The notes below the pieces were generated by a model that was not told where the DNA came from, ran no database searches, and was given only the letters and a program-made list of their open reading frames with translations. A DNA stretch of 39,965 nt from an uncultured Deferribacteres bacterium (GTDB taxonomy: Bacteria; Zhuqueibacterota; Zhuqueibacteria; Zhuqueibacterales; Geothermadaptataceae): assembly GCA_964014485.1 (NCBI GenBank), contig CAXHAT010000059.1:1-39965 (forward strand), read 5' to 3'. Below are positions 1 to 39,965 of this stretch, one piece after another (positions within the stretch are counted from its first letter, which is position 1; each line of letters begins with the position of its first letter). The position numbers were made by a program, and so were the translations under genes.

Positions 1-56
1 TGCGCCGATCTCAATTGCCGAGTTTAGCCTATAAATCCACTAGCACCAAAGGTTAG
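1..56. mobile_element. Terminal fragment of an IS (probably IS630-like), with terminal inverted repeat at 39-56
   Basis: ACTAGCACCAAAGGTTA (39-55) is the exact reverse complement of 39911-39927. It is followed by g56 and TA (57-58), the putative duplicated target. Confidence 0.7.
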
Positions 57-57
57 T

Positions 58-177
58 ATATGTGAGGGCTTCTCCGACAGCCATTTTGCTTACTTTTCGA
101 ATTTTGATCAGATCGACCAATTCAGATTCAAGCTCGCCAAGCTTTGTAGACAATTCGGGGACTTTGAAATCGAACAT
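58..177 (-). pseudogene. N-terminal 40 codons of an IS-interrupted hypothetical gene
   Basis: ATG at 177 reads MFDFKVPELSTKLGELESELVDLIKIRKVSKMAVGEALTY into the repeat. It continues in frame at 39908 if the ends are joined through one TA. Confidence 0.7.
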
Positions 178-220
178 AGCATATTTGAATATTAGAGATT
201 TCAACTTCCTTTGAGGGTAT

Positions 221-250
221 CCCGCCCCCTGCCGACAGGCAAGGGACGGG
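221..250. terminator. GC-rich hairpin downstream of 259..555
   Basis: CCCGCCCCCTGCC-GACA-GGCAAGGGACGGG imperfect stem; no clear U tract. Confidence 0.35.
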
Positions 251-258
251 AATAACGA

Positions 259-555
259 TCATTCGCTTTTATCATCCCACATGAGCGAGATCGCGGGAAG
301 CGGCAAGTGATAGCGCTCAAAAAGATGCATAAGGTGATGACAACTAATTGCTATTTGCTTGACGAGCACTTTTTGACTGACGTTTTCCGCTTTGACAAGC
401 TGGGCCACCAGCGAATGAAGATATGTGTCAAGAAGGACTATTTTGGCTTCCGTGCGAAGTCCGTTATGATCTGCCACGTAGGAGACAGGATCATGCACAG
501 CTTCCTTGATTTTTCCCATATGATTGACAGTGAAGGTTATATCTGATATGATCAA
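259..555 (-). CDS. Hypothetical protein (98 aa)
   Basis: Co-oriented ORF just downstream of the DUF2958 gene; no recognised motif. Confidence 0.5.
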   Translation of the reverse strand: MIISDITFTVNHMGKIKEAVHDPVSYVADHNGLRTEAKIVLLDTYLHSLVAQLVKAENVSQKVLVKQIAISCHHLMHLFERYHLPLPAISLMWDDKSE

Positions 556-577
556 TGAAGACCTTTGTTGGCGGCTT

Positions 578-901
578 TTAAGCCGCTCTTTTTCTTTTCA
601 GCGCCCAGTACAAGTCATGCGCCGGCGTTGGCGTGAAATAAAAATCTCGCTCGATTTCCATGCCGCGCTGTCCCCTGTTTTTCATCAGCTCCGAGAGCAA
701 AAATGATCCATACTCAAGTTCAAACCCGTCAACCAGGCCGTAAAATAAGTCTTTGCCGTCAAATTCAATTCCATACCACGTCCAGGAAAAATCAGGGTAA
801 AAGAACTTAACGACGGCCAGCGGATTCTCCTGATTGTAAGCTTCACCAAGTCCGGGAAGCTGCGTGAGAATGTCAGGCGGCAGTAGTTGCTCGCGAGTCA
901 T
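578..901 (-). CDS. DUF2958-family protein
   Basis: Typical motif VVKFFYPDFSWTWYGIEFDG..FYGLVDGFELEYGSFLLSEL..IERDFYF. Confidence 0.85.
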   Translation of the reverse strand: MTREQLLPPDILTQLPGLGEAYNQENPLAVVKFFYPDFSWTWYGIEFDGKDLFYGLVDGFELEYGSFLLSELMKNRGQRGMEIERDFYFTPTPAHDLYWALKRKRAA

Positions 902-916
902 ACGCGTATATGTGAT

Positions 917-1123
917 TTAGAGCAAGTCATCCGACTTGTCATTTGAGGATTGACCTTTTGAAGATTTTGCAGGCGGTTTCGTACCGACCTTTTTCTTGCC
1001 GTTGCGGTAGGATTCCAAGAGCTTTGCGCGAAGAATGTCAAAGAAGCGTTCCCGTCCGCCTTCTTGCCGACATTCGTCAAGCGCGCGCTCAAGCTCCTGC
1101 ACCGCATCATCGAGGTAAGACAT
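917..1123 (-). CDS. Small hypothetical protein (68 aa, MSYLDDAV...LLESYRNGKK)
   Basis: ATG at 1123 gives a helical, charged peptide. The upstream extension in the ORF track looks non-coding. Confidence 0.6.
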   Translation of the reverse strand: MSYLDDAVQELERALDECRQEGGRERFFDILRAKLLESYRNGKKKVGTKPPAKSSKGQSSNDKSDDLL

Positions 1124-1531
1124 AGATTGGCAATGAGCATTATATTTTCCGAGTGGCTCGACCTTTTTTCCCAAGGCCACCTGATGGCGGGGTGGCATCA
1201 CTGCGCCGGCTGTCAAGTCCCGCTCGAAAATAAAAGCTGGGAAATGCGAAGGCTCAAAAAAAAGAGGAAAACAGCGCAGGGCTGGTGTGGTAAAATTTCC
1301 TACCACATCAGACATGGGATGTTTTCCGGATTCCTTAAATGTGCGCCGCAGTATTTTTCAGCTTCCAAAGCGTTCGCGGTGACTTTACAGCTTTAGGCGC
1401 AGGGGTGCTACCCTGGCAGCAGGTGGCCTCCTCCCCGCTCCAAACGTTCCTTTTCCGCTCACGATTTTGTTCTGCTCATCTAGTTTAATCAAGCGCCGGG
1501 CAAGGTGTTGGACGTACGGCGCAACTGGGCT

Positions 1532-1795
1532 ATCCGCCGCCGTCGAGGTACGCGGAGCGGCCTCGACCACCCCCTTTCAGGTTGAGCGCTCTTTGATCTA
1601 AAATCAATAGATATGCGCGAAACCCAAAGAGATCCCGCCTGCGACTCATGAGCGGGCGCGGTCGATGCCGCCGGAATCCAGCAACGGGACCCGGCAGATT
1701 GGGCGGTTTGTGCCGATGGGACCCGATCTGTTGGGATGATGGTGACGGTGAAAGGGGGTGGTCGAGGGCGGGATCGCCCGAAGACGGCGGCGGAT
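1532..1795. repeat. Nested long-range inverted repeats (structured non-coding element)
   Basis: 1532-1544 pairs with 1783-1795 (13 bp) and 1561-1579 pairs with 1749-1767 (19 bp); both are perfect. Confidence 0.75.
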
Positions 1796-1948
1796 GAGGC
1801 TGTATGAGTGACGCTCTAAATTCGAATACATGCAGGATTTACGTGCGTCCGAATCAGGCTCAAAATTTTTCGTGCTGTTGTTTTCACTGCGTTTTCTAAG
1901 ATCGCTCGGCTATTACTCCAAAAAGACGATTTGAAAACCACAAAAAGC

Positions 1949-1965
1949 GTGCACTTTTAAGTAGG
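1949..1965 (-). repeat. Solitary inverted iteron downstream of rep
   Basis: GTGCACTTTTAAGTAGG is the reverse complement of the iteron CCTACTTAAAAGTGCAC. Confidence 0.85.
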
Positions 1966-1986
1966 TTTTTGGCTGACGTTCGCAAC

Positions 1987-3657
1987 TCAGCCAGCGTTCT
2001 GTTCGGGGTCTTCTTCCGAATTTATCTTTGCACTCAAACCTTGCATTCTTTTCTCAAGATCACCCATTCTCTCTTTTCGCGCCTTGAGTTGCCCCGGCAA
2101 AATCTTCTTGCTGTAGTCGCGAAGCAACGCCTTGTCAGCATCACTTTCCGGAAGCCGGTTGTGCTCTTTCCGAAACCACCCAAAAACATTTTCCGTGTAC
2201 AGAGTTTCAATCTGTCCGTCATGATCCGCATTGAGAAAATTCTCGATTTTGGCAAATTCGGTTTGCAGCTCCGACAATTGTTCCCGCGCTTTCGAAGGCC
2301 GTTTCCTTTTTTGCGCCTTTTGCTTTTCGTCTTTGGTTGCAAAACCGGACGGGTCGCTCCAGTCTTCTTCAATGGATTTTCTCAGGAATCCGGCCGGGTT
2401 TTTTCCCGCCTTTTCCGGGCGGTTCTCTTTCAGCCAATCGAATACCGTAATCTTATGCTCGATTTTGGCGCCTGAGTGCTCTCTGGAGAGCTTCTGAGCC
2501 GTTTTGCGGCTTATCCCTCGACTCACGAGCTTATCGACGCTCTCAGCGCCGTTTTCGCGCTCTGGGAATGAAAGCTGGGCAGACGTTTTACGACGGCGCG
2601 GCGGCAACGCAACCGTGGTGCGAATTTCCGACTTGTTTTTCTCGTATTCGGCTCGCGCTCGCTTGCCGATGTGATATTGCAATTTCCAGTCATTGGCGTC
2701 AGGCGCGTCGAGCCATTCGACTGCGGAGAGATACTGCGTTTCAATCAAAAGATCATGAGCGCGCTTCAACTGCTTCTTTGCCTTCCACTGAGGTGATTGG
2801 CGGGTCAACGGCAGATAGGCGCACAGCCGGGAGTACTTGGTCTCGTAATATTTTTGCTTGCGTTCAAGCGTTGCGAAAAAATTGATGCAGAGCGTTTCAT
2901 AGAGCCGCGTGGTGATCGCTCCTGTCAGGCTCGTATAATAATTCCAATCGAGCGGCACCACATAATTGGCATTGATGTTTTGCAAAAACCAAGTTCCAAG
3001 CTCAACGAACACGGCATCCGCAACCGTGCCGTCGGTCATTACATCGCCGCGAAAAATCACCCGGTTGTAGAGGTTGAAGCTGTCGCTCATGTGCTTTTTC
3101 GTTTTGTCTGCTTTAAGCTGAAAAGACCCTTCCGCCTGGATAGTCGCCCCCTTGATGCTTCGCAGGCCGTCCTGGATCGCCTTGATGTTTTTCCCGGAAT
3201 TCGAATTGATTCCCATGACCCGCGCAATGTACCGAAGCGACCCGAGTCGCACTGGATTCTCAACAGGCTTTGGCGCAGCATTCAAAATTTGCTCGACGGC
3301 CCGGTGAATGCGTTTCTCAAAATCGCCGGGGAAACGATGCTCAATATTCCGACTCACCTTCCAGTACACCCGCATCGTCCCTTCTTTCGTCTCCACCATT
3401 TCATCGATCTCGAGTTTTGCGCGCTTGCTGTCGCGCCCCAGATCGAAAAACGGAAATTTGAGAAAATTCAGTTCCGTACGCAGCGTTTGCGGAATATCAA
3501 GGTTGAGGCCAAGCTGTTTCTTTTTCGCAAGTTTTTTGCGTTGACCTTTCAAAGATGATGCGTCGTCGCCATCCTTCTGTCGGGATGCGCGAGTTGTTTT
3601 TTTCGGCAAATCAAGCCCCGTGAATTTGGTGTAATGCTGGAAAAATTCATCCCCCAT
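1987..3657 (-). CDS. repA: Plasmid replication initiator, RepA/RPA-like (ATG 3657; alternative TTG 3678)
   Basis: ELNFLKFPFF N-terminal motif, SLRYIARVMG winged helix, C-terminal KNPAGFLRKSIEEDW motif; iterons on both sides; par cassette adjacent. Confidence 0.8.
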   Translation of the reverse strand: MGDEFFQHYTKFTGLDLPKKTTRASRQKDGDDASSLKGQRKKLAKKKQLGLNLDIPQTLRTELNFLKFPFFDLGRDSKRAKLEIDEMVETKEGTMRVYWKVSRNIEHRFPGDFEKRIHRAVEQILNAAPKPVENPVRLGSLRYIARVMGINSNSGKNIKAIQDGLRSIKGATIQAEGSFQLKADKTKKHMSDSFNLYNRVIFRGDVMTDGTVADAVFVELGTWFLQNINANYVVPLDWNYYTSLTGAITTRLYETLCINFFATLERKQKYYETKYSRLCAYLPLTRQSPQWKAKKQLKRAHDLLIETQYLSAVEWLDAPDANDWKLQYHIGKRARAEYEKNKSEIRTTVALPPRRRKTSAQLSFPERENGAESVDKLVSRGISRKTAQKLSREHSGAKIEHKITVFDWLKENRPEKAGKNPAGFLRKSIEEDWSDPSGFATKDEKQKAQKRKRPSKAREQLSELQTEFAKIENFLNADHDGQIETLYTENVFGWFRKEHNRLPESDADKALLRDYSKKILPGQLKARKERMGDLEKRMQGLSAKINSEEDPEQNAG

Positions 3658-3671
3658 ATTTTTCAAAAAAG

Positions 3672-3720
3672 ACAACAACAGCTTCTATTGTTGTTGTTTA
3701 CTTAATTACTTAAATACTTA
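3672..3720. promoter_or_regulatory. Hairpin plus three AT-rich 8-mers (candidate unwinding element of oriV)
   Basis: ACAACAACA-N8-TGTTGTTGT at 3672-3697, then TACTTAAT TACTTAAA TACTTA at 3699-3720, next to the iterons. Confidence 0.5.
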
Positions 3721-3766
3721 GCCGGATTCATAAACCGCTAATTTTACAGCAATTCCAGCGATTTTC

Positions 3767-3974
3767 CCTACTCAAAAGTGCACAGAAACCTACTTAAAAG
3801 TGCACGCTTTCCTACTTAAAAGTGCACAGAACCCTACTCAAAAGTGCACACTTTTTCTTACAAGCCTACTCAAAAGTGCACACCCTTTTTTTGAGAAAAT
3901 AGCGCCTTTGCCGTGCCGGGATGTGTATCCCTGAACAGCAAGCATAGATTTGGCAAGCCTACTCAAAAGTGCAC
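3767..3974 (+). repeat. Iteron array / oriV: six copies of CCTACTYAAAAGTGCAC
   Basis: Copies start at 3767, 3789, 3811 and 3833 (22-bp period, two helical turns), then 3865 and 3958; all upstream of repA. Confidence 0.9.
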
Positions 3975-4108
3975 ACTTTGACAGATGGCAAATACCGCCG
4001 TATACTGACAACACAAAATCCGGCTCTCGTTAAATCAATGAGACCTTTTACGCGATGAAAGCCCAGGGCAATGGGCTTTTTCATTTTACCACATTTTGCA
4101 TATTCAAA

Positions 4109-4175
4109 AAATGCGAACTCAAGTTCGCATTTGTATCGGAGGCAAATCGAAAACACGAACTCGAGTTCGTGTTTT
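4109..4175. promoter_or_regulatory. Two related palindromes, candidate parS centromere
   Basis: AAATGCGAACT-CA-AGTTCGCATTT (4109-4132) and the perfect AAAACACGAACTCGAGTTCGTGTTTT (4150-4175) share the core CGAACTCRAGTTCG and abut the parB stop. Confidence 0.65.
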
Positions 4176-5078
4176 TCATTTTTTCAACCGCCTTTTGACA
4201 TCGTTAATCAGCGACTGAAGCTTCACCAGCAAGTCTTCGTCAGTCGCATAATGAATCAACAGTTTTTTGCCGGCCGGCTCTTGCGGCTCGCCAAGCAATG
4301 CACGCGCCATATCCATTGCCGCCCGTGCTGAAAGCGGGCCGTCGCGATAGGACTTCATTTGCCGCCAAAGCTGAAGTTGTTTATCGGGGTTGTCATGCAG
4401 AGCGTGTAATGCGCGTGCATGGACTTCTGTGAATGCAGTTTGTTCTTTTGTGCGCTTGCTTCCCACGGTCACGAGTTCTTTTTGGATAGCGTCCGGCAAC
4501 TCCAGGAGTTTGAGAAATTGCTGCCGCCTTCGAGGAGTCAAGTCAAGGCGCTCTTCGATTTCCGTCCACTTTACTTTTCGCTTTTCTTCCTGCTCGATGA
4601 CCGCCCGGTAGTTGATAATGCCTTTGGCTTTTTCGACCGGCGAGAGGTCTTCGCGCTGGATGTTTTCAATAAGCTGTTCGGCAATGCGGTCAACGTCGCT
4701 GATGTTCTTCCGGACAATACACGGCATTTCAGAAAGTCCGGCCATTTGCGATGCGCGATACCGGCGCTCGCCGGCAATAATCACGTATTTTTCAATTTCA
4801 GGATTCCAGGTGGCGCTAATCGGCGTTTTCACGCCATAGCGCTTGATCGATTTGGAGAGATTTTCGAGTTCTTCCTGATTGAAATGTTCTCGCGGCTGAT
4901 TTTCATCGCGGACGATAAGGTGAATCGGCACAAAGGCGGCTTCCCGCATGCGTCGCGTTTCTTTTTGACGCGGTTTTGTCAGCTTTGCAAGATCAAGCTC
5001 GTCATCATGAGAATCGGTTTTGGTGATGGTCTCAAAGCGCTCGGTGATGATTTTTTTTCGCTTGCTGTCCATGCTCAT
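4176..5078 (-). CDS. parB: ParB/Spo0J partition protein
   Basis: QPREHF, LSKSIKRYGVKTPI, IIAGERRYRA (arginine patch), ENIQREDLSPVE; overlaps the parA stop. Confidence 0.95.
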   Translation of the reverse strand: MSMDSKRKKIITERFETITKTDSHDDELDLAKLTKPRQKETRRMREAAFVPIHLIVRDENQPREHFNQEELENLSKSIKRYGVKTPISATWNPEIEKYVIIAGERRYRASQMAGLSEMPCIVRKNISDVDRIAEQLIENIQREDLSPVEKAKGIINYRAVIEQEEKRKVKWTEIEERLDLTPRRRQQFLKLLELPDAIQKELVTVGSKRTKEQTAFTEVHARALHALHDNPDKQLQLWRQMKSYRDGPLSARAAMDMARALLGEPQEPAGKKLLIHYATDEDLLVKLQSLINDVKRRLKK

Positions 5079-5881
5079 ACACTGGCGGAATAGTTAATGC
5101 GTTGCAAAATTTCCGTGCGAAACGCGCGATAGCTGTCGGCTTGCTCGGAGTGCGGCTTGGACATGGTGACCGGCTGGCCGTGTATCGAAACTTCGGCGTA
5201 TTCGTTGTTGTCGCGAAATTCAGCCTTGAAAACAAGCTCCTTGAATTTGTTCTGAATTTCATCATGGAAAATGCGTTCGTTGCCGCGTCTGCTGTCGAAT
5301 TTATTGATAATCACGCCGAGCAAGGCAAGGTCGGGATTTTCCTTTTGTTGAATTTCCTGGGTAAACGAAACGGTCTCGGCAAGTTCGGCAATCGAAAGGT
5401 CGCTGCACTCAGTCGGGATGATAATGCCGTTTGCCGCGATCAGCGCCATTGTGGTGGCAAGCTTGAACGAGCTGTGGCAGTCAATGATGATAAAGTCATA
5501 CTGATCGCGCACCGGTTCAAGCGCAATATCGAGGAATTCCGACGATTCTGAAAAATCAGTAAAGAACCGGTCAAGGTTCTTGAGCATTTTGCTTGACGGC
5601 AACAGATCGAGCTTGTCGATCCCGGTCCTTCGAATGGCGTCGACTGCTAAAATGCGTTCACCGTCATCTTTGTCTTCATCGATGAAATCATAGAGAATAT
5701 TCCAGATACCGGGTTTGAGCGACTTTTGACCGGTGAGAATCGAGGTGAGACTGCCTTGTTCGTCCATATCGACAACCAATATTCGAAACCCGGCTTCCGC
5801 AAGGACGCCGGCAAGGTTGAACGAGACGTTGGTTTTACCGATTCCGCCTTTTCGGTTTGCGATTGCAAAGATATGCGCCAT
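5075..5881 (-). CDS. parA: ParA/Soj partition ATPase
   Basis: Deviant Walker A NRKGGIGKT, ILVVDMDEQG, YDFIIIDC. Confidence 0.95.
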   Translation of the reverse strand: MAHIFAIANRKGGIGKTNVSFNLAGVLAEAGFRILVVDMDEQGSLTSILTGQKSLKPGIWNILYDFIDEDKDDGERILAVDAIRRTGIDKLDLLPSSKMLKNLDRFFTDFSESSEFLDIALEPVRDQYDFIIIDCHSSFKLATTMALIAANGIIIPTECSDLSIAELAETVSFTQEIQQKENPDLALLGVIINKFDSRRGNERIFHDEIQNKFKELVFKAEFRDNNEYAEVSIHGQPVTMSKPHSEQADSYRAFRTEILQRINYSASV

Positions 5882-5886
5882 AGAGC

Positions 5887-6099
5887 TTATGTTATGTTGT
5901 TGTTTTGTTGAAGATACAGTTTGATTGCGTGCGCAAGCTCGATGTTTTTGCGGCTCGCCTTTTGAGCCACGCGGATGTTGAACTCCATGACCAGGTCTTT
6001 TGGGATTTCTCCAGTAATTCGCAGGAGCGGTTGATCGCCGAAAGACGGCGGCTTTCCCCCAACGGGCACGGTTTCGGTTTTCTTCTTGCGCAAGCTCAT
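5887..6099 (-). CDS. Small ribbon-helix-helix-like DNA-binding protein (70 aa)
   Basis: RITGEIPKDLVMEFNIRVAQKASRKNIELAHAIKLYL fits a beta-alpha-alpha RHH pattern; first gene of the par operon; ATG at 6099. Confidence 0.6.
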   Translation of the reverse strand: MSLRKKKTETVPVGGKPPSFGDQPLLRITGEIPKDLVMEFNIRVAQKASRKNIELAHAIKLYLQQNNNIT

Positions 6100-6105
6100 G
6101 GGATC

Positions 6106-6135
6106 ATCATAACAAGTTTTCGAGTATTTGTACAA
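6106..6135 (-). promoter_or_regulatory. Sigma70-type promoter of the par operon
   Basis: TTGTAC-18-TATGAT with an extended TGn, ending 6 nt before ATG 6099. Confidence 0.55.
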
Positions 6136-6204
6136 AAACCAAATAAGTGCAAGAAAGCGTTTTTTGTGAGTCTGCCAAATGAAAGTGAACGGACGCTGAT
6201 TGCA

Positions 6205-6233
6205 TTGACATGCGCAAAGATGCACGGTACGAT
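6205..6233 (+). promoter_or_regulatory. Sigma70-type promoter
   Basis: TTGACA-17-TACGAT, ending 6 nt before ATG 6240. Confidence 0.65.
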
Positions 6234-6239
6234 GAGGGC

Positions 6240-6749
6240 ATGACAACGAATGAACTCAAAGCGATTTTAAAAGAGGAGCTTGGCGGATTCCGTGACGAAA
6301 TACGCGGAGAGTTTGGTGAGTTCCGCAATGAGATACGTGGAGAACTTGGCGAATTTCGAAGTGAGTTTGATGCTTTTCGAGCTGAAGTGCGCACAGATAT
6401 TCAGCAGATCAACACACAGCTTGATAATGTTGAAGGACGACTTGGCAATGTTGAAGGAACCGCCGACAGCATGAAAAATCGTCTGGATCGGATCGAGCAA
6501 AACATGACGACAAAGCAGGACGTCGAGCGGATCGACGCGCATTTCACCGCGATCAAGGAAGACCTGACCCATATCGAAGAAGAATATCTTGACCCGATCA
6601 GGCAAGGCAATGCGGCTGTGGTTGAATTGGCTGAAAGCCGAAATCAGGATATAAAAGACGTGAAGAATAAAACGGCGAGCTTGGAGGAAGCGAGTCAAGA
6701 TCATGAAGATCGATTGCAACGATTGGAAATCAAGCCCGCAAGCGTATGA
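6240..6749 (+). CDS. Coiled-coil protein with 11-residue repeats
   Basis: GFRDEIRGEFG/EFRNEIRGELG/EFRSEF hendecads followed by heptads. ATG 6240 is preferred because ATG 6210 overlaps the -35 box. Confidence 0.75.
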   Translation: MTTNELKAILKEELGGFRDEIRGEFGEFRNEIRGELGEFRSEFDAFRAEVRTDIQQINTQLDNVEGRLGNVEGTADSMKNRLDRIEQNMTTKQDVERIDAHFTAIKEDLTHIEEEYLDPIRQGNAAVVELAESRNQDIKDVKNKTASLEEASQDHEDRLQRLEIKPASV

Positions 6750-6916
6750 CGCACGATGCGCAATCGGAAAACTCAAGTGACGAGCTGGTCGTTGAACCAA
6801 TCTCAGAATCAACTCAAACGCCGCTGGCTGAGCTTGCCAGCGGACGCTTTGTGATTATGAGCGACGGCAGCGTCATTTTTGAGCCGGAGTTTGTTGAATC
6901 ACGGCGTTACGCGTGA
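6746..6916 (+). CDS. Small acidic hypothetical protein (56 aa, not in the ORF track)
   Basis: ATGA overlap with the previous stop; MTHDAQSENSSDELVVEPISESTQTPLAELASGRFVIMSDGSVIFEPEFVESRRYA. Confidence 0.45.
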   Translation: MTHDAQSENSSDELVVEPISESTQTPLAELASGRFVIMSDGSVIFEPEFVESRRYA

Positions 6917-6999
6917 AGTTTGATAAAAGTCGTCTTTAGCGTCAGTCCCCTGCTTCAGCCCGAATACGACAATGCAAAAACCCGTTAAAATCTCATTTT

Positions 7000-8376
7000 T
7001 TGGCTAAGGTTAGCAAAAAACATCCTTCCCGACGTCATCACGGCACAGCTCGCGTTCTGCCCAAAGGCCGTTCGCCGACGATCTTTGCCAAAGGCATGGT
7101 CGGATATTATGAGCGCCAATTCGGCCTGACGCAGGCTGATCGGCGTTATCATCTGTATTCGATTGGCCGTACCGGAACCGGCAAAAGCACGCTGTTTCTG
7201 AAAATGATCGCCCAGGACCTGGCCGCCGGGCGAGGACTGGCGCTGATCGATCCACACGGCGACTTGGCGGAGTCAGCGCTTTCATACGTTCCCAAGCGCC
7301 GCCTGCAGGACGTGATCTACTTTCATCCCGCCGACGCCGAGCACCCGGTCGGATTGAATGTTTTCGAACCGGAAAAGAACGCGCCGCATTATTTGGTCGC
7401 AGCGAATATCGTGAGCATTTTTCGAAAATCATGGAAGGAGTTTTGGGGGCCGCGCATGGGATATTTACTGGAGAACGCTATTTTGGCATTGCTCGAATAT
7501 CCAAACGCAACTCTACTTGGACTGCAGCGCTTGCTCACAGACGTCCAATATCGGAACAAGGTTATTGCCGGAGTCACCGACCCGGTAGTAAAACACTACT
7601 GGCAAGTACAATTTGTCGGCTTTCCAGAGCGATTGTTGCCTGAGATCACGTCGCCGGTACTCAATAAGGTCGGATCGTTTTTGGCGAACGACGCGGTAAG
7701 AAACATTGTCGGCCAAAAGCGAAGCGCCATAAACTTTCGCGATCTGATGGATAAGAAGCGAATTTTGATCGCCAATCTTTCCAAAGGGAAAATCGGCGAA
7801 TCCGGCGCTAACCTGCTCGGCTCGCTCTTGATTGCAAAGCTGCAATTTGCGGCCATGGCGCGGGCGGATACGCCGGAAGACCGGCGGCAAGACTTCAATC
7901 TCTTTGTGGATGAGTTTCAGAACTTCGTGACCGAAAGCTTTGCAGATATTCTTGCCGAGGCGCGCAAATACAGGCTCTGTCTCCATCTTGCCAATCAGTA
8001 TCTTGGGCAAGTCGATGAAGGCATTCGCGACGCCGTGCTTGCCAATGCCGGCACGCTCGTTTCTTTCCGGCTGGGGCCGGATGATGCGCGCGTCATTGCG
8101 CGTGAGTTTGAACCGCAGTTTGACTATGTGCAAGTGATGAATCTTGATGCGCACGAGATTATTTGCAAGGTCATGGAAAAAGGAAAGGTGTCCCAGCCAA
8201 TACAGGGCGCAACGCTCTTGCCGTCTCGGTCGCCAAGCGAGAAACGCAAACGTGCGGCGATCAAACTGTCGCGAACGCGATATGCGAAAAAACGCACTTT
8301 GGTAGCAAGCGCGGTGAATGAATTTTTTGAGAGCGGCAACCAAGCTCAAAAGAAATCCGAAATTCTGCTACAATGA
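7000..8376 (+). CDS. VirD4/TrwB-like (HerA/DUF87 superfamily) coupling-type ATPase, no transmembrane anchor
   Basis: HLYSIGRTGTGKS (Walker A), LIDPHGD, LFVDEFQNF (Walker B), EARKYRLCLHLANQY. Start uncertain (TTG). Confidence 0.88.
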   Translation: MAKVSKKHPSRRHHGTARVLPKGRSPTIFAKGMVGYYERQFGLTQADRRYHLYSIGRTGTGKSTLFLKMIAQDLAAGRGLALIDPHGDLAESALSYVPKRRLQDVIYFHPADAEHPVGLNVFEPEKNAPHYLVAANIVSIFRKSWKEFWGPRMGYLLENAILALLEYPNATLLGLQRLLTDVQYRNKVIAGVTDPVVKHYWQVQFVGFPERLLPEITSPVLNKVGSFLANDAVRNIVGQKRSAINFRDLMDKKRILIANLSKGKIGESGANLLGSLLIAKLQFAAMARADTPEDRRQDFNLFVDEFQNFVTESFADILAEARKYRLCLHLANQYLGQVDEGIRDAVLANAGTLVSFRLGPDDARVIAREFEPQFDYVQVMNLDAHEIICKVMEKGKVSQPIQGATLLPSRSPSEKRKRAAIKLSRTRYAKKRTLVASAVNEFFESGNQAQKKSEILLQ

Positions 8377-9036: not shown

Positions 9037-9387
9037 TTAACGGTTTGTTTTGATTTCTCGAAACGGCTTTGGCCGCCAATGCAGGTCTCGGTCAACCTCG
9101 GCCGGTATGGAGCCGATGTGCTTTTCGTCTTTCAGGAGCGGGACGCTCACCTTGATCTCTCTGAGTTCCTCAAGGGAAATATATCCCCATTCAGCATTGA
9201 GATCATCGCCTAAATTGGCGTACCCGAAAAACAAATTCTCACCGTCATACTCGGCAATATACCAATCGCACCCTCCGATAAAAAAGTGCATATGAATGAT
9301 GACTTCCGGCAAAGAAACGCCGGCATCTTCATTGGCATACAGCTTGGGCAGTTTCGCAAGCTCTCTTGCGCTCGGCTCGTTCCACAT
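9037..9387 (-). CDS. DUF2958-family protein (start MWNEP)
   Basis: LPKLYANE, HFFIGGCDWYIAEYDG..FFGYANL..AEWGYISLEEL..EVDRDLHW; GGAGGG RBS. Confidence 0.85.
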   Translation of the reverse strand: MWNEPSARELAKLPKLYANEDAGVSLPEVIIHMHFFIGGCDWYIAEYDGENLFFGYANLGDDLNAEWGYISLEELREIKVSVPLLKDEKHIGSIPAEVDRDLHWRPKPFREIKTNR

Positions 9388-9493
9388 AGAATGCCCTCCG
9401 TGTTTTGTGAAATGGTGATTCAATGAGCAAAAGTGCTGAGCGCATTATTTCACAAAGCGCAAGGATCGCAAACAGGCGTGGGAAAGAAAGGGT

Positions 9494-17577: not shown

Positions 17578-17955
17578 TTATAAATCCAGCGTGTTTTTGA
17601 TGAATGCAACCGCAGCGGACGCAGCGGTTTTGTCTTTCCCGTTCGCTTCACCGTCCAGCAAGCGTGAAAGAGCTTTCTCGATGACCGGCCCGTGGGTTTG
17701 CCAGGCGCTCTCAAGGTCATCGAGCTTTTGCCAATGAACCTTCTTGATTGCTCGAGAATCATTGGGGATCATGGCAAAGTCGCTTTGCAGCAGCTCCTGA
17801 ATAAATTGCGACCTGCTTCCTGCATCCGTCCACAAAAGCGCAATCTCCGTAATTGCCTTTTTCGCGCTCATCGCGCTCTCATGAACGACCAATTCATCCA
17901 GATACTCGTGTTCCCCTTGCACGATGGTATAGAAAACCTTAGTGGACTTCGTCAT
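17578..17955 (-). CDS. Hypothetical protein (125 aa)
   Basis: GGGAGG RBS; overlaps the upstream gene as part of an operon. Confidence 0.7.
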   Translation of the reverse strand: MTKSTKVFYTIVQGEHEYLDELVVHESAMSAKKAITEIALLWTDAGSRSQFIQELLQSDFAMIPNDSRAIKKVHWQKLDDLESAWQTHGPVIEKALSRLLDGEANGKDKTAASAAVAFIKNTLDL

Positions 17956-30420: not shown

Positions 30421-32298
30421 TTAAAAATCCATTAGCTCATCATCCGTACGCTCGGCAGTCGTTTTTGCGACAACACCATGCGCATCGACAATCTCGACGA
30501 CCTGAGCGTCTTCCGGAGCCGCTCCAAAGAGCCGGGCGGTATTTGCTTCACAAAGCTCCAGGCGCTCACGAAACGGCAAATAGATCGAGGGCGTATGTGA
30601 GCGCGAAAGCGAAAGCGCGTGCTCGATCTTCTCGGCGTCTTCCGGATAGGGCGAAATCGTGCGAATCTTCACCATCATGCTCGGTTCGTCCACCAATTTG
30701 ACGATAGCGTGCTGTCTGGGCATGGCGATCAGCTTGACCATCTGCCTGAAATGTTGCTCTTCCTTGCCCCAAAATTCCCGGCTCGCCAGCTCTTTCCCGA
30801 TGATCGGCATGAGCATCAACGCTTCATGTGAGCTTTTGACTTTCGACGTGCCTTCCATATGCGCGCTGAATTCGCTCCAGGAACTCATCATCGAATCAAA
30901 GCTGGCGGATGATTCATGAACTGAAGCAACGCCTTGACCATCCCCTTCCGGCAGGATCACTTCGCCGGAGCTTGTGGTCATGCCCGATCCGGAGGCGCTC
31001 GCGCTCCCCGAGCCTTCGGAATGTGCGTTATGGCTTCCGCTCGCAGTGCCCGAAAGCATCATTTTATGCATCTTGTACCCGAGCACGGTCGTGCGAAAAA
31101 GCTGATGTTTGACTTCAGCCAGATTCCATTCCGGCGCAAAAAGCCATGCCAGCTTTTCTGCGTCCTGGAAGTACACGCTAAAGATAATCTTATTGCGCGC
31201 CTGACTCATCACTGCGTCGTAAATCGCGGTCGGCGGATCGAGATGCTCGCTGACAAGCTGTCCCAGATGCTGGTGAGACAACACCATGTGCATGCCTTTT
31301 TGCCGGCAGGTTTCAAGGATGCTGGAAGCGTTGGGCGTGAGAAAGTGCTGGAATTCGTCAATGAGAAGATAGAACGGCTTCTTGACCGCGTCCTTGCGCT
31401 TACGCCGGAGCGCGTAGTAGTAAAGTTCGTTCACGAGCAAAGTACCGATGATGTAGCTTTCCTTCTCCGAAATCCAACCTTTTTGCGAGAGGTTGACCAA
31501 GAGAATTTTTTGATTCTCAACAATGTCTTCAATGTCGATCACATTCCTGATCTGCCCCAACGTCGCCTTGATCATTTCATTGCGGGCAAAATCGGAAATA
31601 CGGTTGTAAAAGCTCTCAATTCGCTCGCCCTGGTTGCGCGGCGGCAGTTTATCGAAACCGCGCCAGTAGTCGCAGACAATAAAATCGTCGGTATGCGAAA
31701 GAATTGCATCCCGCGTATCTTTATTCGACAAAGCGAAATGGATCAGCTCAAACGAGGTCAAACCCGCTTCGATGATGGGCTGAAGCGAATTTGAAAGCGT
31801 GTTGGAGAGCCGTTTGGCTATCGCAGGATCCGTCTCAAACACCTTGATCATGCTGACCGTGAGAGAACGCACCTGCTCGGCAAGCGACGGATAATACCGC
31901 GCCCTTCTAAGCGGATTGTAGCCGACCATGTAGTCGCTCGGCTCGGTTGGATTGAAAAACACCACGCGATCCGCATACTCCGGATGATGCGCGATGTAAT
32001 TGACCACTGAATCATAGAGAAAACCAAGCGGATCGATCAGGCAGAAGGATTTGCGCATGAATAAGAGCATCCGGATCAAAAGCTCCAAAAAGAACGACTT
32101 ACCGCTTCCGGTAGCCCCGATGATATGCAGGTGGGTTTTCAGGCGCTCCAGATCGATGAACTGCATGCCCTTGCGATCTCGGCCGACCGGAACGAGATCA
32201 GTATTTTGCGACTTGATAAACTGCTCCGGCGTCATGGACGTTTTGGAAAAATAGTCTTTTGGCGTTGGCAGTGTTTTTAAGAATTCATCCGCATTCAT
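30421..32298 (-). CDS. Second VirD4/TrwB-like (HerA/DUF87 superfamily) ATPase
   Basis: HLHIIGATGSGKS, LIDPLG, LLIDEFQHF, CRQKGMHMVLSHQHLGQL; Ser/Gly-rich insert; no transmembrane segment. Confidence 0.88.
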   Translation of the reverse strand: MNADEFLKTLPTPKDYFSKTSMTPEQFIKSQNTDLVPVGRDRKGMQFIDLERLKTHLHIIGATGSGKSFFLELLIRMLLFMRKSFCLIDPLGFLYDSVVNYIAHHPEYADRVVFFNPTEPSDYMVGYNPLRRARYYPSLAEQVRSLTVSMIKVFETDPAIAKRLSNTLSNSLQPIIEAGLTSFELIHFALSNKDTRDAILSHTDDFIVCDYWRGFDKLPPRNQGERIESFYNRISDFARNEMIKATLGQIRNVIDIEDIVENQKILLVNLSQKGWISEKESYIIGTLLVNELYYYALRRKRKDAVKKPFYLLIDEFQHFLTPNASSILETCRQKGMHMVLSHQHLGQLVSEHLDPPTAIYDAVMSQARNKIIFSVYFQDAEKLAWLFAPEWNLAEVKHQLFRTTVLGYKMHKMMLSGTASGSHNAHSEGSGSASASGSGMTTSSGEVILPEGDGQGVASVHESSASFDSMMSSWSEFSAHMEGTSKVKSSHEALMLMPIIGKELASREFWGKEEQHFRQMVKLIAMPRQHAIVKLVDEPSMMVKIRTISPYPEDAEKIEHALSLSRSHTPSIYLPFRERLELCEANTARLFGAAPEDAQVVEIVDAHGVVAKTTAERTDDELMDF

Positions 32299-34250: not shown

Positions 34251-37200
34251 TTACTTGCCGGTGGCGATATACGGGCCCCAATAATACGGATGATTATATT
34301 TCGGGTGGGCAATCAAGGCTTTTTGAGCATACTGCACGGCAACGGCGGCGTCATGCGTTTTCTGTAATTCAGTATAAAACTCACGCATAAACGTTAATGA
34401 TGACTCATCATTGACGTTCCAGAGCGTTGAGACCACTGCGCTCGCTCCTGCGAAAAGAAACCCGCGCACCAATCCAACGACCTCTCCGCCGGCAGAAATC
34501 CCCGCCCGATATTCCGCTTCCAACCCCGATTCACATGCGCTCAGAACGACCAATGCGCTATCCACCGCAAAGCTAAAAGCGTCATGGACAAAGAATCGTC
34601 CGTCGTCGACTTCGTTTTTTGGTGCGAACTGAAGCGCAAAAAGCAACGGGCTTTCCGGCGATGGTATGCCATGCATTGCAAGATGAATAATATCGACCCG
34701 CTCGGCAAGCTGCCGGAGCGTGTCTTTCGTCGCATGTTCGTCAGTAATGACGCGAACCGGCGCATTCCAGAGCGCTTCAATTGCTTGCGCCTCCGGAACA
34801 ACATATCGAAGCGTTCCTCTTGGGCTCTTAGGATACGCAATCGCCAAAATCTCTTTGCGCATCTGCGCCGGGCGTTGCATGGCAACGTATTTCATGACGC
34901 TTGCCGATGGATAATTGACCACGACAAATTGACTTGCCAAAACCGCCCCATCGAGCATAAGTGTTTGGAAAGGAAGACGATAGAGAACGTCATCGGCCAA
35001 AACAATTACCGAGTTCACATCGTCGAACAATCCGGCCGTTTGTATCGAATCAAGGAGTGCGCCGCCTAAACGAGACGCTTGCTCTTTCCAATTCTGCTGT
35101 TTCAAGCGCACTGCTTCGCGAAACCGGCGCACGTGAGAGCGGAGCACAGCTCGTGAATATGATACAGAAAACACCTGAAGCGGATTTCCCGGACGCGCCG
35201 CACATATCAGAATTCGATCATCCAACACCACATATTGCAGTAATAGCGCATCTTGAGGGATCTGTGGAAGAGCATCTTCCAAGCTGACAACGGCACTCGA
35301 AAGAACCGAGCCGACCATCGGGCGATCTCGCTCTACTTCGTGAAGAAATTCAGAATATGCCGCTTGAGCCTGCTCAAATTGTTTCGATGTGTGCTCACGC
35401 ACTGAACTGCGTGCACCGCTTTCGCCCGACGATATGTTTTGTGCCAACTGAGAATATCGCCGAGAAAGCTCGCTTCTCAGTCGCAAGCCTTTTTTTAAAA
35501 ACTGGTCATTATCGCGAGCTGAAAATTGAACTTCACGCTGAGAAAGCAAACCCAAGAATGTCCGCGCTTTCGCCTTTTCTGCGAATTTGAAAACATCATG
35601 ATATTCCTTGAGCGTGTACGCCCATAAAACTTGTTTTTCTGTGTGCTCCCGCAGTTCGTCAAAATAAGCCGCTCGGCTAAAACTCGACCCAAAGGCATTC
35701 GCAATTTGTTCATGAGTGACCAAAGCGCGTTCATAAGCAAGAGACGCTTGATCTATTCTTCCCATCTTCTCATAGACGCTTCCTTTAGATAGGAAGGCAT
35801 CGGCAAAAAGACGTAAATCTCCATTGGATTGTGAAGCATCGATAACCATATCAAGCAAAGCAATCGCTTGATTCTCCATCCCTTTTTCACTCAATATAAG
35901 GGCCAACACTAGGCGTGTGCTCTCAGCTGTGTACGGGAGTCCCTGCTTTTCAGCATATGCAATCAGTTGCTCCCATTCATTTGTTGATGCAGGCAAAGTC
36001 TTTGTTTCTATATAGCACCTTGCAAGTAAGGTTATTGTAGCGTGAACTAAATCAAAATACTCCAATTCCTTAGCGAGCGGCAGAACGTCTTCATGAATAG
36101 CTTTTGCAGAACGATAATCTTTCTGCGCTTGATAGATCATCGCAATATTGGATTTTGCTTTCAGAGAAATATCTTTTATCCCTAAAGAATCTGCTATAGA
36201 TTGAGCATTCTGTGCAGCTTTTAAACCTTCATCATACCGCCCCATGTACGAATATATCTCAGAGAGCGAACGCAATCCCCCGGAAACGTCCCGCATGTTC
36301 CCTATTTCTCGATGAATATGTATAGATTGTTTTTTATGCTCTTCCGCCTCTTCAAACTGGCCGCGAAAGTAGAAAACATCTCCTAATCCGCTTGTCGAAG
36401 CAGCTTCTAAAAGTCGTTCGCCACGTTCTTTTGCAAATAGTATTGACTTTTCGTAGTAATCTTGGGCCTCATCGTAATAACCAAGCACTAAAGACATATG
36501 GCCCAGGTTGTGCAAAGTGGTGTTGTGGTTCCGTTTGCTCAAGATATCAGCAAAAGAAAGAATCTCTAAGTATGTAGCTCTCGCTTCCCTTATCTCTCCT
36601 GTTTTTTCCTGTGTTGTCGCGATGTTTCCGGCAACTGTCAATACAAATCGTCTGTCATTTATGGCTTGAGCAAATTCCTTTGCTTGTTCATATTTTTCAA
36701 TAGCCTCACGATACTTGGCTGTATAATCTTTTATATTCCCCCAGATATTCAGTATGCGAGCCAATAACCAACGATCACCTGTCTTTTGTGATATTTCGTA
36801 ACTTTTAGTGATATTTTTCTCGGCGTTTAGAATATCACTTGCTCTCATGAAAGCAAACGCACGATACGACAACGCTCTTGCGCGCAAATTATCATGGGTA
36901 ACTTGCTGCCACAATGAATCGGCACGGTTGTAACGATTTATTGCAAGTAGAAATTGGCTCTGCATAAGCGATTGAAACGCCGAGTCAGCCCACGTTTCCG
37001 CCAATCGTCCCTTCCGCGCCTTCTCAACATGGTTTGCAACATCTTCATAGCCTGAATAAGAAGATGCTAAGGAAAATTTATTTGCCGCACTATCAAACTC
37101 GCCAATATAAAAATAGAAATGACCAAGCGCGAGCTTTGCAGAGGGCGCGTCTTTAGCTTCCAAATCGGAACGAAGCCCCCTGTAAGCAGTGGTATCTCCT

Positions 37201-37430
37201 GCAAAGTAATGTGCTCGCAATAAAAACGCCAACACCTCAGAATCCGTAGAATCATCTTGCACCTTACTCTCGGCAATCTGTATTGCGCCGGCATAGTCCA
37301 TCTTTCCCAACAATTCCTGTGCGTCGCTCAAAGACGCTTCACTTGCAGACTGCTTTTCAGAGCAAGAAAGCACAGCGATCACTAAAAGAATCATTGTAGA
37401 CAAAACTGCAATACGTCTCAGCGTCATCAT
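34251..37430 (-). CDS. Lipoprotein TPR-CHAT (caspase HetF-associated) protease
   Basis: VLSC lipobox; many TPR repeats; AEKAKARTF, LPFQTL, catalytic IHLAMHG and VLSACESG, TLWNVND, HPYYWGPY. Confidence 0.93.
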   Translation of the reverse strand: MMTLRRIAVLSTMILLVIAVLSCSEKQSASEASLSDAQELLGKMDYAGAIQIAESKVQDDSTDSEVLAFLLRAHYFAGDTTAYRGLRSDLEAKDAPSAKLALGHFYFYIGEFDSAANKFSLASSYSGYEDVANHVEKARKGRLAETWADSAFQSLMQSQFLLAINRYNRADSLWQQVTHDNLRARALSYRAFAFMRASDILNAEKNITKSYEISQKTGDRWLLARILNIWGNIKDYTAKYREAIEKYEQAKEFAQAINDRRFVLTVAGNIATTQEKTGEIREARATYLEILSFADILSKRNHNTTLHNLGHMSLVLGYYDEAQDYYEKSILFAKERGERLLEAASTSGLGDVFYFRGQFEEAEEHKKQSIHIHREIGNMRDVSGGLRSLSEIYSYMGRYDEGLKAAQNAQSIADSLGIKDISLKAKSNIAMIYQAQKDYRSAKAIHEDVLPLAKELEYFDLVHATITLLARCYIETKTLPASTNEWEQLIAYAEKQGLPYTAESTRLVLALILSEKGMENQAIALLDMVIDASQSNGDLRLFADAFLSKGSVYEKMGRIDQASLAYERALVTHEQIANAFGSSFSRAAYFDELREHTEKQVLWAYTLKEYHDVFKFAEKAKARTFLGLLSQREVQFSARDNDQFLKKGLRLRSELSRRYSQLAQNISSGESGARSSVREHTSKQFEQAQAAYSEFLHEVERDRPMVGSVLSSAVVSLEDALPQIPQDALLLQYVVLDDRILICAARPGNPLQVFSVSYSRAVLRSHVRRFREAVRLKQQNWKEQASRLGGALLDSIQTAGLFDDVNSVIVLADDVLYRLPFQTLMLDGAVLASQFVVVNYPSASVMKYVAMQRPAQMRKEILAIAYPKSPRGTLRYVVPEAQAIEALWNAPVRVITDEHATKDTLRQLAERVDIIHLAMHGIPSPESPLLFALQFAPKNEVDDGRFFVHDAFSFAVDSALVVLSACESGLEAEYRAGISAGGEVVGLVRGFLFAGASAVVSTLWNVNDESSLTFMREFYTELQKTHDAAVAVQYAQKALIAHPKYNHPYYWGPYIATGK

Positions 37431-37444
37431 GACACCCCTTATGG

Positions 37445-38272
37445 TTATCGCTCAAGAGTTTGCGATTCAGACTCCCCAAGATTGCGGGATCCGATAAATG
37501 CCTGCACATACCAAGTATATGTCCGTCCTTCCTGTAAGAAGGCTGTTTCGATATCTGTTAGCATGGTATCTCGGGTTTCAACGCTCTGAAAAAAATCGAG
37601 GTCGCGCGTTTCCTCAAAAACGACTTTATAGCTCGTTGCGTTCTTAAAGCTCTTCCAGTGGAATGTTCCGACAATTTCTATGACATTTTTGCTTTCAGAG
37701 CCTCGTTCATCTGACGAGCTTCGTTCCTTCAGAATCGAGTCAGGCAACACCCACAAGCCAACCAAAATCGCAATTCCGGCAAGAGCGGCTCCCGACACTA
37801 TTTTTCTTGCCGGAGTTGCACCTAAAAACTCCCTCGCGGTTGTCGTCCAGGTTAGGTTTGTACGATCTGACCGCTTACTGGGCATGTCATCCGGTAGATG
37901 CTTTCTCGCATCCTGAATGGCAATGTCACAATACCTGCACATGCGAATATGCTCATCAACCTTCTCCCGGATCATAGCCGACAAGCTGTCTCCGGCATAG
38001 TCAACTATTGTTTCTTCATCAGGACACTCTTTCCCGTCATCATAACGCTCCGGAATTACGATCTCGCCAGATTCAACAGCTTGAGATAGTTCAGCCAACG
38101 CTTTTTCCCGGCGCCTTTCTTTTGCAGACTGAAGCAAACCCACAAACACCTTGCACTCCTCACAGCGATTTACATGCCGCTCTATCGCCAAGAACTTTCT
38201 CTTTTTCCGAATTCGAAGCCAGAATGCGTCTACTGCAAACGCTCTCAATTCATCGACTGATGGATGATCCAT
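37445..38272 (-). CDS. Anti-sigma factor with two zf-HC2 motifs, a transmembrane helix and a periplasmic Ig/FN3-like domain
   Basis: HVNRCEEC and HIRMCRYC; transmembrane AALAGIAILVGLWVL; FHWKS..SYKV..YTWYVQA. Confidence 0.85.
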   Translation of the reverse strand: MDHPSVDELRAFAVDAFWLRIRKKRKFLAIERHVNRCEECKVFVGLLQSAKERRREKALAELSQAVESGEIVIPERYDDGKECPDEETIVDYAGDSLSAMIREKVDEHIRMCRYCDIAIQDARKHLPDDMPSKRSDRTNLTWTTTAREFLGATPARKIVSGAALAGIAILVGLWVLPDSILKERSSSDERGSESKNVIEIVGTFHWKSFKNATSYKVVFEETRDLDFFQSVETRDTMLTDIETAFLQEGRTYTWYVQAFIGSRNLGESESQTLER

Positions 38273-38340
38273 ATCACTTCCCGCATTTCATCTTTTCAGG
38301 CGTAAAAGCCTCCCTCGCTCCATACAATAATGAGACTGCT

Positions 38341-38901
38341 TTATTCGCCTTTTTGCTGAATCTTCTCCCACTCCCGCCAATATTCTAAAAGTTTTGTTCT
38401 ATTGAAATGATTCATTTTATTTGATATTTGTTTTGGGGTCATTCCCATGATCTTCGCAATTTCCCGTGGCGGCGAAATTTCGATCAAATAAAGATGGGCG
38501 ATTTTCTTGGCTTCCGGCTTCAAGTCCGGATCAGTGCGTATTTTGTGTTCTATAAAATCCAGTTCTTCTTTGCCAATTCTGCCCCCGTTTGGCGGTGGGG
38601 GCGGAGGCGGTGGGGGCGGCGACTTGTCTCTTTTGCACTCGTCCAATGTCGTAGTCCGTACGATCTCCCGTAAGTAGGCTTTGTATTTTTCCGAACCATC
38701 AGGCTGACCTTCTTTTAATTTGTCGTATGATTTCACATAACTTGACTGATATGCCTCATGAAAAACATCTTGCCAATTATTGAGCTTCCACCCCTTCATA
38801 TGGTGCCGAATCCAAATCTGCACATCTTTATCAACCAGACTCCAGAGCTTCGCAAACGCAGTATCCTTACAGGATTTCACTTTGTTCGCGAGCCGCGTCA
38901 T
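38341..38901 (-). CDS. Divergent ECF sigma factor with a poly-Pro linker
   Basis: AFAKLW, DVFHEAY, YLREIVRTTTLDECKR (region 2); PREIAKIMGMTPKQIS (region 4); lies upstream of the anti-sigma gene. Start 38901 preferred. Confidence 0.75.
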   Translation of the reverse strand: MTRLANKVKSCKDTAFAKLWSLVDKDVQIWIRHHMKGWKLNNWQDVFHEAYQSSYVKSYDKLKEGQPDGSEKYKAYLREIVRTTTLDECKRDKSPPPPPPPPPPNGGRIGKEELDFIEHKIRTDPDLKPEAKKIAHLYLIEISPPREIAKIMGMTPKQISNKMNHFNRTKLLEYWREWEKIQQKGE

Positions 38902-39548
38902 ACGCCGATCACCACCCATTAGCAGTCCTGACATTTTCAAAAAGAAGATTAACGCGCCAATTCGGAACAATAGTAAATCCAGACGGCTTAAATCCAAGCA
39001 ACGAAGTACCAACCTTGTCCGTTCGCCCACGCATCCATGCACTCATGGTTGGAGCGAAACAGCGTGGATCGCCGCACGGCGGGTGAATCCGCAATCAGCA
39101 TTGCGGAGAGGGCAGTCCCTTAGACATCCCGTCCTGGGCTTCTCAGGGAAGCGCAGGACACCGCTCACCGGATTTTTTTCCTGGAACGCGGGTGTGAGCA
39201 GATTGCCCGCTATGACCGAATCTGCTTGCGCCCTGAAGTGGAAGGAAGAAAAATCCGCAACGCGCACTCCCCGCCCGTGCCAGAAGACGGCCTTTCATAG
39301 CTCCCGCACCCGCGTCTTCCTGCAAATAACCGCATTGCCCGCTCCTTACTCTTTGAGTATATAAAACGGGCGGTGGAACGGCTCGATGAACTGGATCGCG
39401 CAGTGAGTAAAATAAAATGCACCCTTTGAGGTGGAACGACCCCGCTGGATCGAAAGCAGCGAATGCATATCCAATGGAGCGAAGTGGATGGACCGCCGCA
39501 TCAGTGTCCCCGCCCGCCCCGAAATTGGGGCGGGCTTCAAGCATGTGC

Positions 39549-39908
39549 TTATGAGCGCGGTTTCAATCGGGGAACGCCCAGGCTGTTGAATTGGACATTT
39601 CGGAATGCGTCAAGACCGGCTCTCCTGCCAAGCGCAAACGCTTTCCAGAAGCATAACTCAACATACTGCAAGACGAGCGGCCAGAAAAAGTCTCGTGAAT
39701 CAATCATGATGCTCATACGCGCACATAGAGCATCCCATTCCAACTTCATCTGTTCAGCCGCTTCACGACCGCTCGGCCTGGGATTCAAGAATGCGTGAAA
39801 AGTGAGGAGAGGGTAAGGCGTCGCCCCGTCCGTCAGGTTGATCAGCGCATCTCCAAAAGAGGAGAGAGAATAGCGTCCCGCCCAATAAAAATCCGCAAAA
39901 TAACGCTT
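39549..39908 (-). pseudogene. C-terminal 119 codons of the IS-interrupted gene
   Basis: Open from 39908 (KRYFADFYWAG...) to the stop at 39549, in the same frame as ORF 39549..39788. Confidence 0.7.
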
Positions 39909-39909
39909 A

Positions 39910-39965
39910 GTAACCTTTGGTGCTAGTCATATTTTTGTTTGAGAATAATGCCCAACTCTGGTTAA
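39910..39965. mobile_element. Opposite terminal fragment of the same IS
   Basis: TA (39908-39909), then GTAACCTTTGGTGCTAGT; the sequence beyond the repeat differs from that at the left end. Confidence 0.7.

Follow-up and report, generated by a model that had tools for sequence, protein, structure and literature searches.

Contig CAXHAT010000059.1 of assembly GCA_964014485.1 (39,965 nt, here called the window, which is the entire contig C59 of the source metagenome-assembled genome G000) is very probably a free circular iteron plasmid of low copy number, about 40.75 kb in size, from an uncultured marine bacterium of the KSB1 group; the plasmid has been hit once by an insertion sequence (IS) that appears to be of the IS982 type. 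An original prediction, made from the sequence alone, had described a complete replicon broken in the assembly by one multicopy IS, and that part stands: plasmid backbone genes, repeat ends shared with other contigs, an 899-nt contig at about three times the depth of the window, a matching duplication and an open join all agree with it, but the size of 39,851 bp given for the replicon has to be changed to 39,854 bp. Assemblers routinely split contigs at an IS, and neither the plasmid type nor the IS type is new; the interest lies mainly in the host, which seems to belong to the little-studied group KSB1.

The contig ends and the probable closure of the circle

A perfect inverted repeat (IR) of 17 nt is found at 39-55 and 39911-39927, each arm followed inward by one base and TA, as originally described. 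The source genome (8.4 Mb, 465 contigs, the shortest of 1,570 nt) has 13 copies of this pattern at no more than one mismatch and none of a reversed control pattern, and we therefore judge the repeat not to be a product of chance. Contigs C152, C244, C388 and C415 also have the first 55 nt of the window (end A) at a terminus, and C21, C262 and C384 have its last 55 nt (end B); these shared ends are assembler overlaps with one collapsed multicopy repeat. Since the chromosome would hold further copies of the IS at several places, the assembler presumably broke off at either IS end, and a repeat contig of about 0.9 kb is absent from the source genome, where no contig is shorter than 1,570 nt. Both ends of many other contigs (C20, C35, C56, C119, C127, C148, C291 and others) share another sequence, which we take to be Nextera adapter left untrimmed in the assembly; the ends of the window are without it.

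Outward from every IS end the sequence reads TA-N-TA, where N is G, A, A, C and A at the five A-ends and C, T, A and T at the four B-ends. The middle base differs among copies of the same end and must therefore be target DNA, with no spacer between element and duplication. The duplication of a mere TA that had been proposed is thereby largely refuted, for the middle base varies within one end yet matches across true pairs. The direct repeat is instead TAGTA; it takes in the outer TA of the 17-mer, so that the true terminal IR is 15 bp (39-53 and 39913-39927). Two gene-less mini-elements of the same genome, C10:49323-49560 (238 bp) and C221:5072-5263 (192 bp), have the same ends and matched 5-bp repeats, and similar mini-elements of 110-300 bp are numerous in other genomes. 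The features at the two ends of the window are as follows.

1-53, + strand: right (3') end of the putative IS982-type element; the final 10 transposase codons and the stop occupy 2-34, the IR 39-53; same end on C152, C244, C388 and C415
54-58, + strand: target-site duplication TAGTA, copy 1, matched 5-bp repeat
59-177, - strand: 5' part (40 codons) of an interrupted orphan open reading frame (ORF), open from the ATG at 177; no homologue
39549-39907, - strand: 3' part of the same orphan ORF, 119 codons with the stop after them, open frame; no true homologue
39908-39912, + strand: target-site duplication TAGTA, copy 2, matched 5-bp repeat
39913-39965, + strand: left (5') end of the putative IS982-type element; IR 39913-39927, the same as in full-length relatives; end common to C21, C262 and C384

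When one TAGTA is kept, the frame that runs from 177 to 39,549 is free of stops and encodes 160 aa. The 159-aa frame that results from keeping a single TA is also open, as had been claimed, but the correct join adds one Thr codon. With a hexamer model built from 2,151 long ORFs of the source genome the 5' half has a coding score of 0.215, which about 1% of 55,718 wrong-frame stretches also reach. The score of the 3' half is 0.004; it is typical of the window's own genes, and 10.5% of 4,068 wrong-frame stretches lie above it. The neighbouring minus-strand ORFs 39143-39544 and 39043-39267 score as non-coding, and promoter scans at the window ends found none on the minus strand that would serve the split ORF. 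Homologues of the 3' half were absent from a word-indexed search, the Atlas gave no usable hit, and among 167 genomes of the phylum it matched only itself; three matches from a full HMMER scan were rejected as unrelated proteins inflated by repeats. The 5' half had no homologue among longer proteins, which is a weak test.

Among the 20 possible pairings of A-ends with B-ends, the two ends of the window are the sole match for TAGTA, while six others agree for TAATA. The same rule, used as a control, joins C21 and C152 (TAATA) into one open repeat-protein frame of 497 and 501 codons, and the 5-bp join retains the Asn that follows the repeat motif in five of ten genome matches; here a further copy of the IS interrupts a long gene for a repeat protein. 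The pairing of C415 with the right end of the window also gives an open frame, but it was rejected, as the duplication is mismatched and the frame is the antisense shadow of another gene. On C415 itself (2-1456, - strand) the IS lies just upstream of a gene for another transposase-like protein (at least 485 aa), which by eye resembles IS1380.

The sequencing runs that contain the window are marine metagenomes of a single study, and three of them (X1, possibly the source run, X2 and X3) were compared as contigs against window 1-8000. A single 15,258-nt contig of X1 covers the window from 26 to beyond 8,000 without a joint, so no empty allele is evident. X1 also holds an 899-nt contig at depth 40.9 which matches window 1-55, the end at which its match is established, and which would fit the missing IS. 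If this contig consists of the IS plus a terminal TA on either side, the IS is 895 bp, the circle 40,754 bp and the empty replicon 39,854 bp. The window has a contig depth of 13.4 in X1 and three other IS flanks have 6.4, 8.6 and 9.4, contig depth being no copy number. Duplication, frame and depth agree with a closed extrachromosomal circle, and no read across the junction was seen. At window position 55, X3 has an IS flank starting with TTA, a type that is not among the A-ends of the source genome; it could be the missing partner of C262 or a new insertion.

The inserted element

Positions 2-31 of the window translate to APISIAEFSL, followed by a stop, and the transposases of related elements finish in SIAEFSL-like sequence; end A is therefore the 3' end of the IS. 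The source genome does not contain the body of this copy, and only these ten C-terminal residues are visible there. The repeat was searched in two public collections and matched at least 127 and at least 124 stretches, which gave 249 loci and 86 distinct IR pairs after 14 loci from the source genome and relative genomes had been left out; the counts of related elements given here are among the matches listed. Because the pattern used for the search prescribes TA on one side, the middle base is the informative test of duplication length. A 5-bp repeat flanks 40 of the 86 pairs, a 6-bp repeat 12, a 2-bp repeat 27, and seven have 0-1 bp. The middle base is the same in 33 of the 44 pairs of short elements that have TANTA on both sides, whereas 10,000 shuffles gave 11.9 on average and 22 at most, and G makes up 19 of these 88 middle bases. 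Agreement is lower in full-length elements (19 of 42), for which mis-joined assemblies of multicopy elements could be the explanation. A 1-bp duplication with longer element ends predicts an identical empty site; we prefer ends that begin with AC, as these would fit the IS982 family. The only match of the IR pattern in 40 relative genomes (G016) falls on the beginning of a gene that looks ordinary, and was taken as chance.

The relatives include 39 elements of 872-998 bp with a single ORF, and 33 of them with a frame of more than 240 aa were aligned. D119 and D195 (numbering of L188) are present in 33 of 33 and E223 in 32 of 33, followed by K236 and R241, 13 and 18 residues on; from these relatives, the three acidic residues are the predicted catalytic triad. 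The only NCBIfam family hit of both relatives that were tested is NF033520 (IS982; 55.9 and 58 bits, E about 1e-15), and PF13612 is also hit. According to the available part of Fayad et al. 2020 (PMC7335449), IS982 elements are 845-1282 bp long with one transposase gene and direct repeats of 2-10 bp, their IRs start with AC and have the consensus AC(N)6T(N)5TT, and their DDE transposase has no K/R 6-7 residues past the E but one about 17 residues past it. Both ends of the window begin with AC and have T at positions 9 and 15; position 16, which is T in most relatives, differs here. The ends, the IR consensus, the length with one ORF, the 5-bp repeat and the DDE spacing (the transposase traits being those of the relatives) all agree with the IS982 family; as the NF033520 scores are under the curated cut-off of 130, the element would represent a divergent branch of it.

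The relatives resemble the family also in having one transposase of about 260-290 aa and a D-D-E without K/R at +6/7. The nearest members in size are the Deinococcus group ISDge8/ISDds4/ISDds5 as given in the available part of the same source, with ISDge8 of 907 bp and a 5-bp repeat compared with about 895 bp and 5 bp here, a likeness to the published description alone, and the only relative in a plasmid record is from Deinococcus psychrotolerans (44%). The strong preference for TANTA targets is unlike the description of the family, as it was not found in that part of PMC7335449.

The original prediction had named IS630 and some IS5-group elements, which duplicate TA. Elements of that kind also have TA beside their ends and a DDE chemistry, but the duplication here is 5-6 bp, the ends are AC, and the relatives hit NF033520 and PF13612 rather than any IS630 model; no NCBIfam family of IS630 or IS5 transposases was hit in two relatives, which gave only a weak hit to the generic PF01609.

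Replication, partition and relatives of the replicon

The genes and sites that mark the window as a plasmid backbone are the following.

1949-1965, - strand: single iteron copy just downstream of rep, sequence match
1987-3678, - strand: predicted RPA-family replication initiator (Rep), 563 aa; PF10134 at 28.9-30.3 bits (cut-off 27), 69 homologues
3767-3974, + strand: iteron array upstream of rep, six copies (22-bp spacing among the first four), behind an AT-rich stretch
4176-5078, - strand: predicted ParB; PF02195, TIGR00180
5075-5881, - strand: predicted ParA; PF13614, NF041546 below cut-off
21126-22423, + strand: XerC-like tyrosine recombinase (21419-22423, PF00589) preceded by two long palindromes (21126-21160 and 21374-21413, self-matches)

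The window thus has what is expected of an iteron plasmid, namely an initiator gene, iterons in helical phase beside rep, and a partition system. The array at 3767-3974 is the likely origin, judging from its sequence, with parA and parB adjoining it, and no copy of the iterons at one mismatch or less occurs elsewhere in the source genome. The recombinase and its palindromes probably form a multimer-resolution unit; no att-like match to the 48 tRNA and tmRNA genes of the host lies near the recombinase, the single match being a 14-mer at 24912. In the non-coding region below rep there are two long inverted repeats about 170-190 nt apart, 1174-1429 (34 nt, 82%) and 1558-1770 (22 nt, 95%), possibly an oriT or a structured RNA.

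Rep is 22-29% identical to proteins of 18 plasmid records, most of which bear the annotation replication initiator protein A or TrfA. Its best matches are on two RPA-type (PF10134) plasmids, NZ_CP019084.1 of Paludisphaera (42.5 kb) and NC_019895.1 of Singulisphaera (32 kb), which have the same initiator family and a similar size. These planctomycete plasmids differ in the low identity of Rep and in a host of another phylum, and 17 of the 18 plasmid records are predicted to be non-mobilisable, whereas the window has a relaxase gene. Eleven of the 69 Rep homologues are on contigs of at least 30 kb, nine of these being 32-49 kb. P0005 (52%) is labelled candidate division KSB1, and P0035 is labelled KSB1 and also Deferribacteres; it is the labels of such relatives, rather than a marker tree, that suggest KSB1 as the host group, and NCBI's KSB1 label also takes in a sister phylum according to the available part of PMC11683472.

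Rep is present in three others of the 167 genomes of the phylum, and the best match is in a genome of the same family as the host (G008). There, on a 568-kb contig (C23), a Rep of 45% identity with nearly the same 22-bp iterons upstream belongs to an element at about 200,900-232,800, which lies among housekeeping-like genes and tRNAs and between two tyrosine recombinases. It shares with the window a DUF2958-type gene, a Replic_Relax relaxase, a coupling protein, a sigma factor, a partner with Cys/His motifs, and TPR and CHAT genes, but no match to parAB was found within 80 kb, and relaxase, sigma factor and partner align without significance. The element also carries Toprim primase, HATPase and radical-SAM-like genes, and no convincing flanking att repeat of 15 nt or more was found in 80 kb. 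In G098 rep stands beside parB, and in G105 it stands beside other 22-bp iterons of its own. We give even chances to an undescribed family of KSB1 iteron plasmids of about 33-48 kb, in which Rep and 22-bp iterons are either free with parAB or integrated without it, and in which the cassette of sigma factor, partner and TPR-CHAT genes occurs in both states.

Alternative explanations

Several points speak against a free circle that has been interrupted once by an IS982-type element. The homology searches were run on each half of the split ORF separately, and without a homologue they give no support for the join. No contig that spans the IS or shows the empty site was found in the three runs of one study, among contigs and at the left end. 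A match of the middle base is expected by chance about once in four to five, and the assembly, with five A-ends and four B-ends, may lack some small flanking contigs. Among the matches listed, 18 of the 42 full-length relatives have only a 2-bp repeat. The chromosomal copy in G008, finally, suggests that replicons of this family can integrate.

The main rival is that the same plasmid is integrated as a cointegrate, where recombination between two IS copies has given the order chromosome-IS-plasmid-IS-chromosome. Such an arrangement would yield an indistinguishable TAGTA match, split ORF and set of short-read contigs, and identical IS ends are found on the plasmid and on seven other contig ends, besides the chromosomal relative in G008. 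We nevertheless hold this to be unlikely: the depth of the window in X1 is 1.4-2.1 times that of the three other IS flanks, and the flank depths sum to 37.8, close to the 40.9 of the IS, when the window is counted once, both being weak arguments since the flank contigs are short (85-377 nt); parAB, rep and iterons are moreover intact.

Independently of this, the plasmid could be real but misbinned from another organism of the sample. Its GC content of 47.4%, compared with 50.2%, is in the lowest 3% of 149 contigs longer than 20 kb, and its tetranucleotide distance ranks 9th of 117. The identical IS ends are, however, found on contigs of typical composition, one of them with a tRNA gene (C21), a methyltransferase gene and a sorting-domain tail of the window match other contigs of the source genome, and the best Rep match among the genomes of the phylum is from the same family, which leaves misbinning with a small probability.

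Slightly less probable still is that the window is part of a larger plasmid or integrated element, cut out between two independent IS insertions, with the TAGTA and the open frame as coincidences. No homologue confirms the fused ORF, the pairing of C415 with the right end is also open, and a tyrosine recombinase is present, but two coincidences at once would be required, the C415 frame fails as described, both halves of the ORF score as coding and stop exactly at the duplication, no att-like tRNA match lies near the recombinase, and the size fits the 32-49-kb class of contigs with Rep. An IS630/IS5 element that duplicates TA, with an empty replicon of 39,851 bp and a 159-aa ORF, is hardly credible, for although TA flanks every copy, the shorter frame is open and 27 of the 86 related pairs among the matches listed have only a 2-bp repeat, 52 of them have 5-6 bp, and the behaviour of the middle base, the AC ends and the lack of any hit to an IS630 model all contradict it.

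Putative mobilisation genes and other genes

The remaining features of the free plasmid that we favour concern its putative transfer and its cargo.

7000-8376, + strand: coupling-protein-like ATPase, TrwB/TraD-like; PF10412, weak TIGR03743
10436-11344, - strand: DinD (Bro-N) protein; NF008573 above cut-off
16388-17263, - strand: C5 DNA methyltransferase; similar genes on C94 and C252 (73% nucleotide identity)
24511-28575, - strand: large LamG protein with C-terminal FlgD-Ig/T9SS-type sorting domain; PF13385, PF13860, TIGR04183
29432-30406, - strand: relaxase-like protein (Replic_Relax); PF13814 above cut-off
30421-32298, - strand: coupling-protein-like ATPase, VirD4-like, beside the relaxase; family matches
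34251-39042, - strand: sigma / partner / TPR-CHAT cassette; sigma TIGR02937 below cut-off, PF12770

Homologues of the relaxase were found in two others of the 167 genomes of the phylum, and there was no match in PLSDB. No mating-pair (VirB-type) gene was recognised among 45 ORFs scanned with Pfam and 18 with NCBIfam apart from weak cross-hits of ATPases, many ORFs being without a family. The tail of the LamG protein matches ten other contigs of the source genome. The cassette consists of a sigma-70-like factor (38341-39042), a 275-aa protein with two HxxxCxxC motifs (37445-38272) and a TPR-CHAT protease-like protein (34251-37430), with a weak match to NF041237. From the motif we assume the 275-aa protein to be anti-sigma-like, and the whole presumably resembles a protease-controlled sigma switch, by analogy to Csx29/Csx30/sigma. 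A LuxR regulator is also among the genes of the window. The region 11349-11822 has a PADLOC match to ShosT (E 5e-22, profile 57-214 of 237), and there are three related DUF2958-type genes (578-901, 9037-9423 and 17939-18475), the first two with Pfam hits, which all match one G008 gene and one gene in locus L275.

There are no tRNA genes in the window, no housekeeping families among the 45 ORFs scanned, and no phage structural families (capsid, terminase, portal, tail) except one weak coiled-coil hit among 22 scanned. A prophage or phage-plasmid was rejected, as structural genes are lacking and no relative of Rep is found in viral_contigs.

Conclusions

If these predictions hold, the RPA-type Rep would bind the 22-bp iterons and open the adjacent AT-rich origin, ParAB would segregate the plasmid copies, and the tyrosine recombinase would probably resolve multimers. 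Relaxase and coupling proteins may permit mobilisation by a helper transfer system, which would be needed because no mating-pair genes were recognised. A copy of the host's IS would have inserted at a TANTA site within the 160-codon orphan gene, where a 5-nt staggered cut duplicated TAGTA.

No paper on a KSB1 plasmid was found in our library searches, and the word "plasmid" does not occur in the main text of the phylum papers PMC11683472 and PMC9012183. A preprint on extrachromosomal elements in sediments (bioRxiv 10.64898/2026.04.10.716911) mentions KSB1 once in its available part, and not for a plasmid.

With this element a divergent branch of IS982 would be defined that is widespread and targets TANTA; the middle base of the target can be used to pair broken contigs again. 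The unit of rep, iterons and parAB, if conserved across relatives, would be a marker for mobile elements of KSB1, and a candidate vector backbone should a member be cultured. If the plasmid family is real, it would provide a native set of origin, partition and mobilisation functions for a group without any cultured member.

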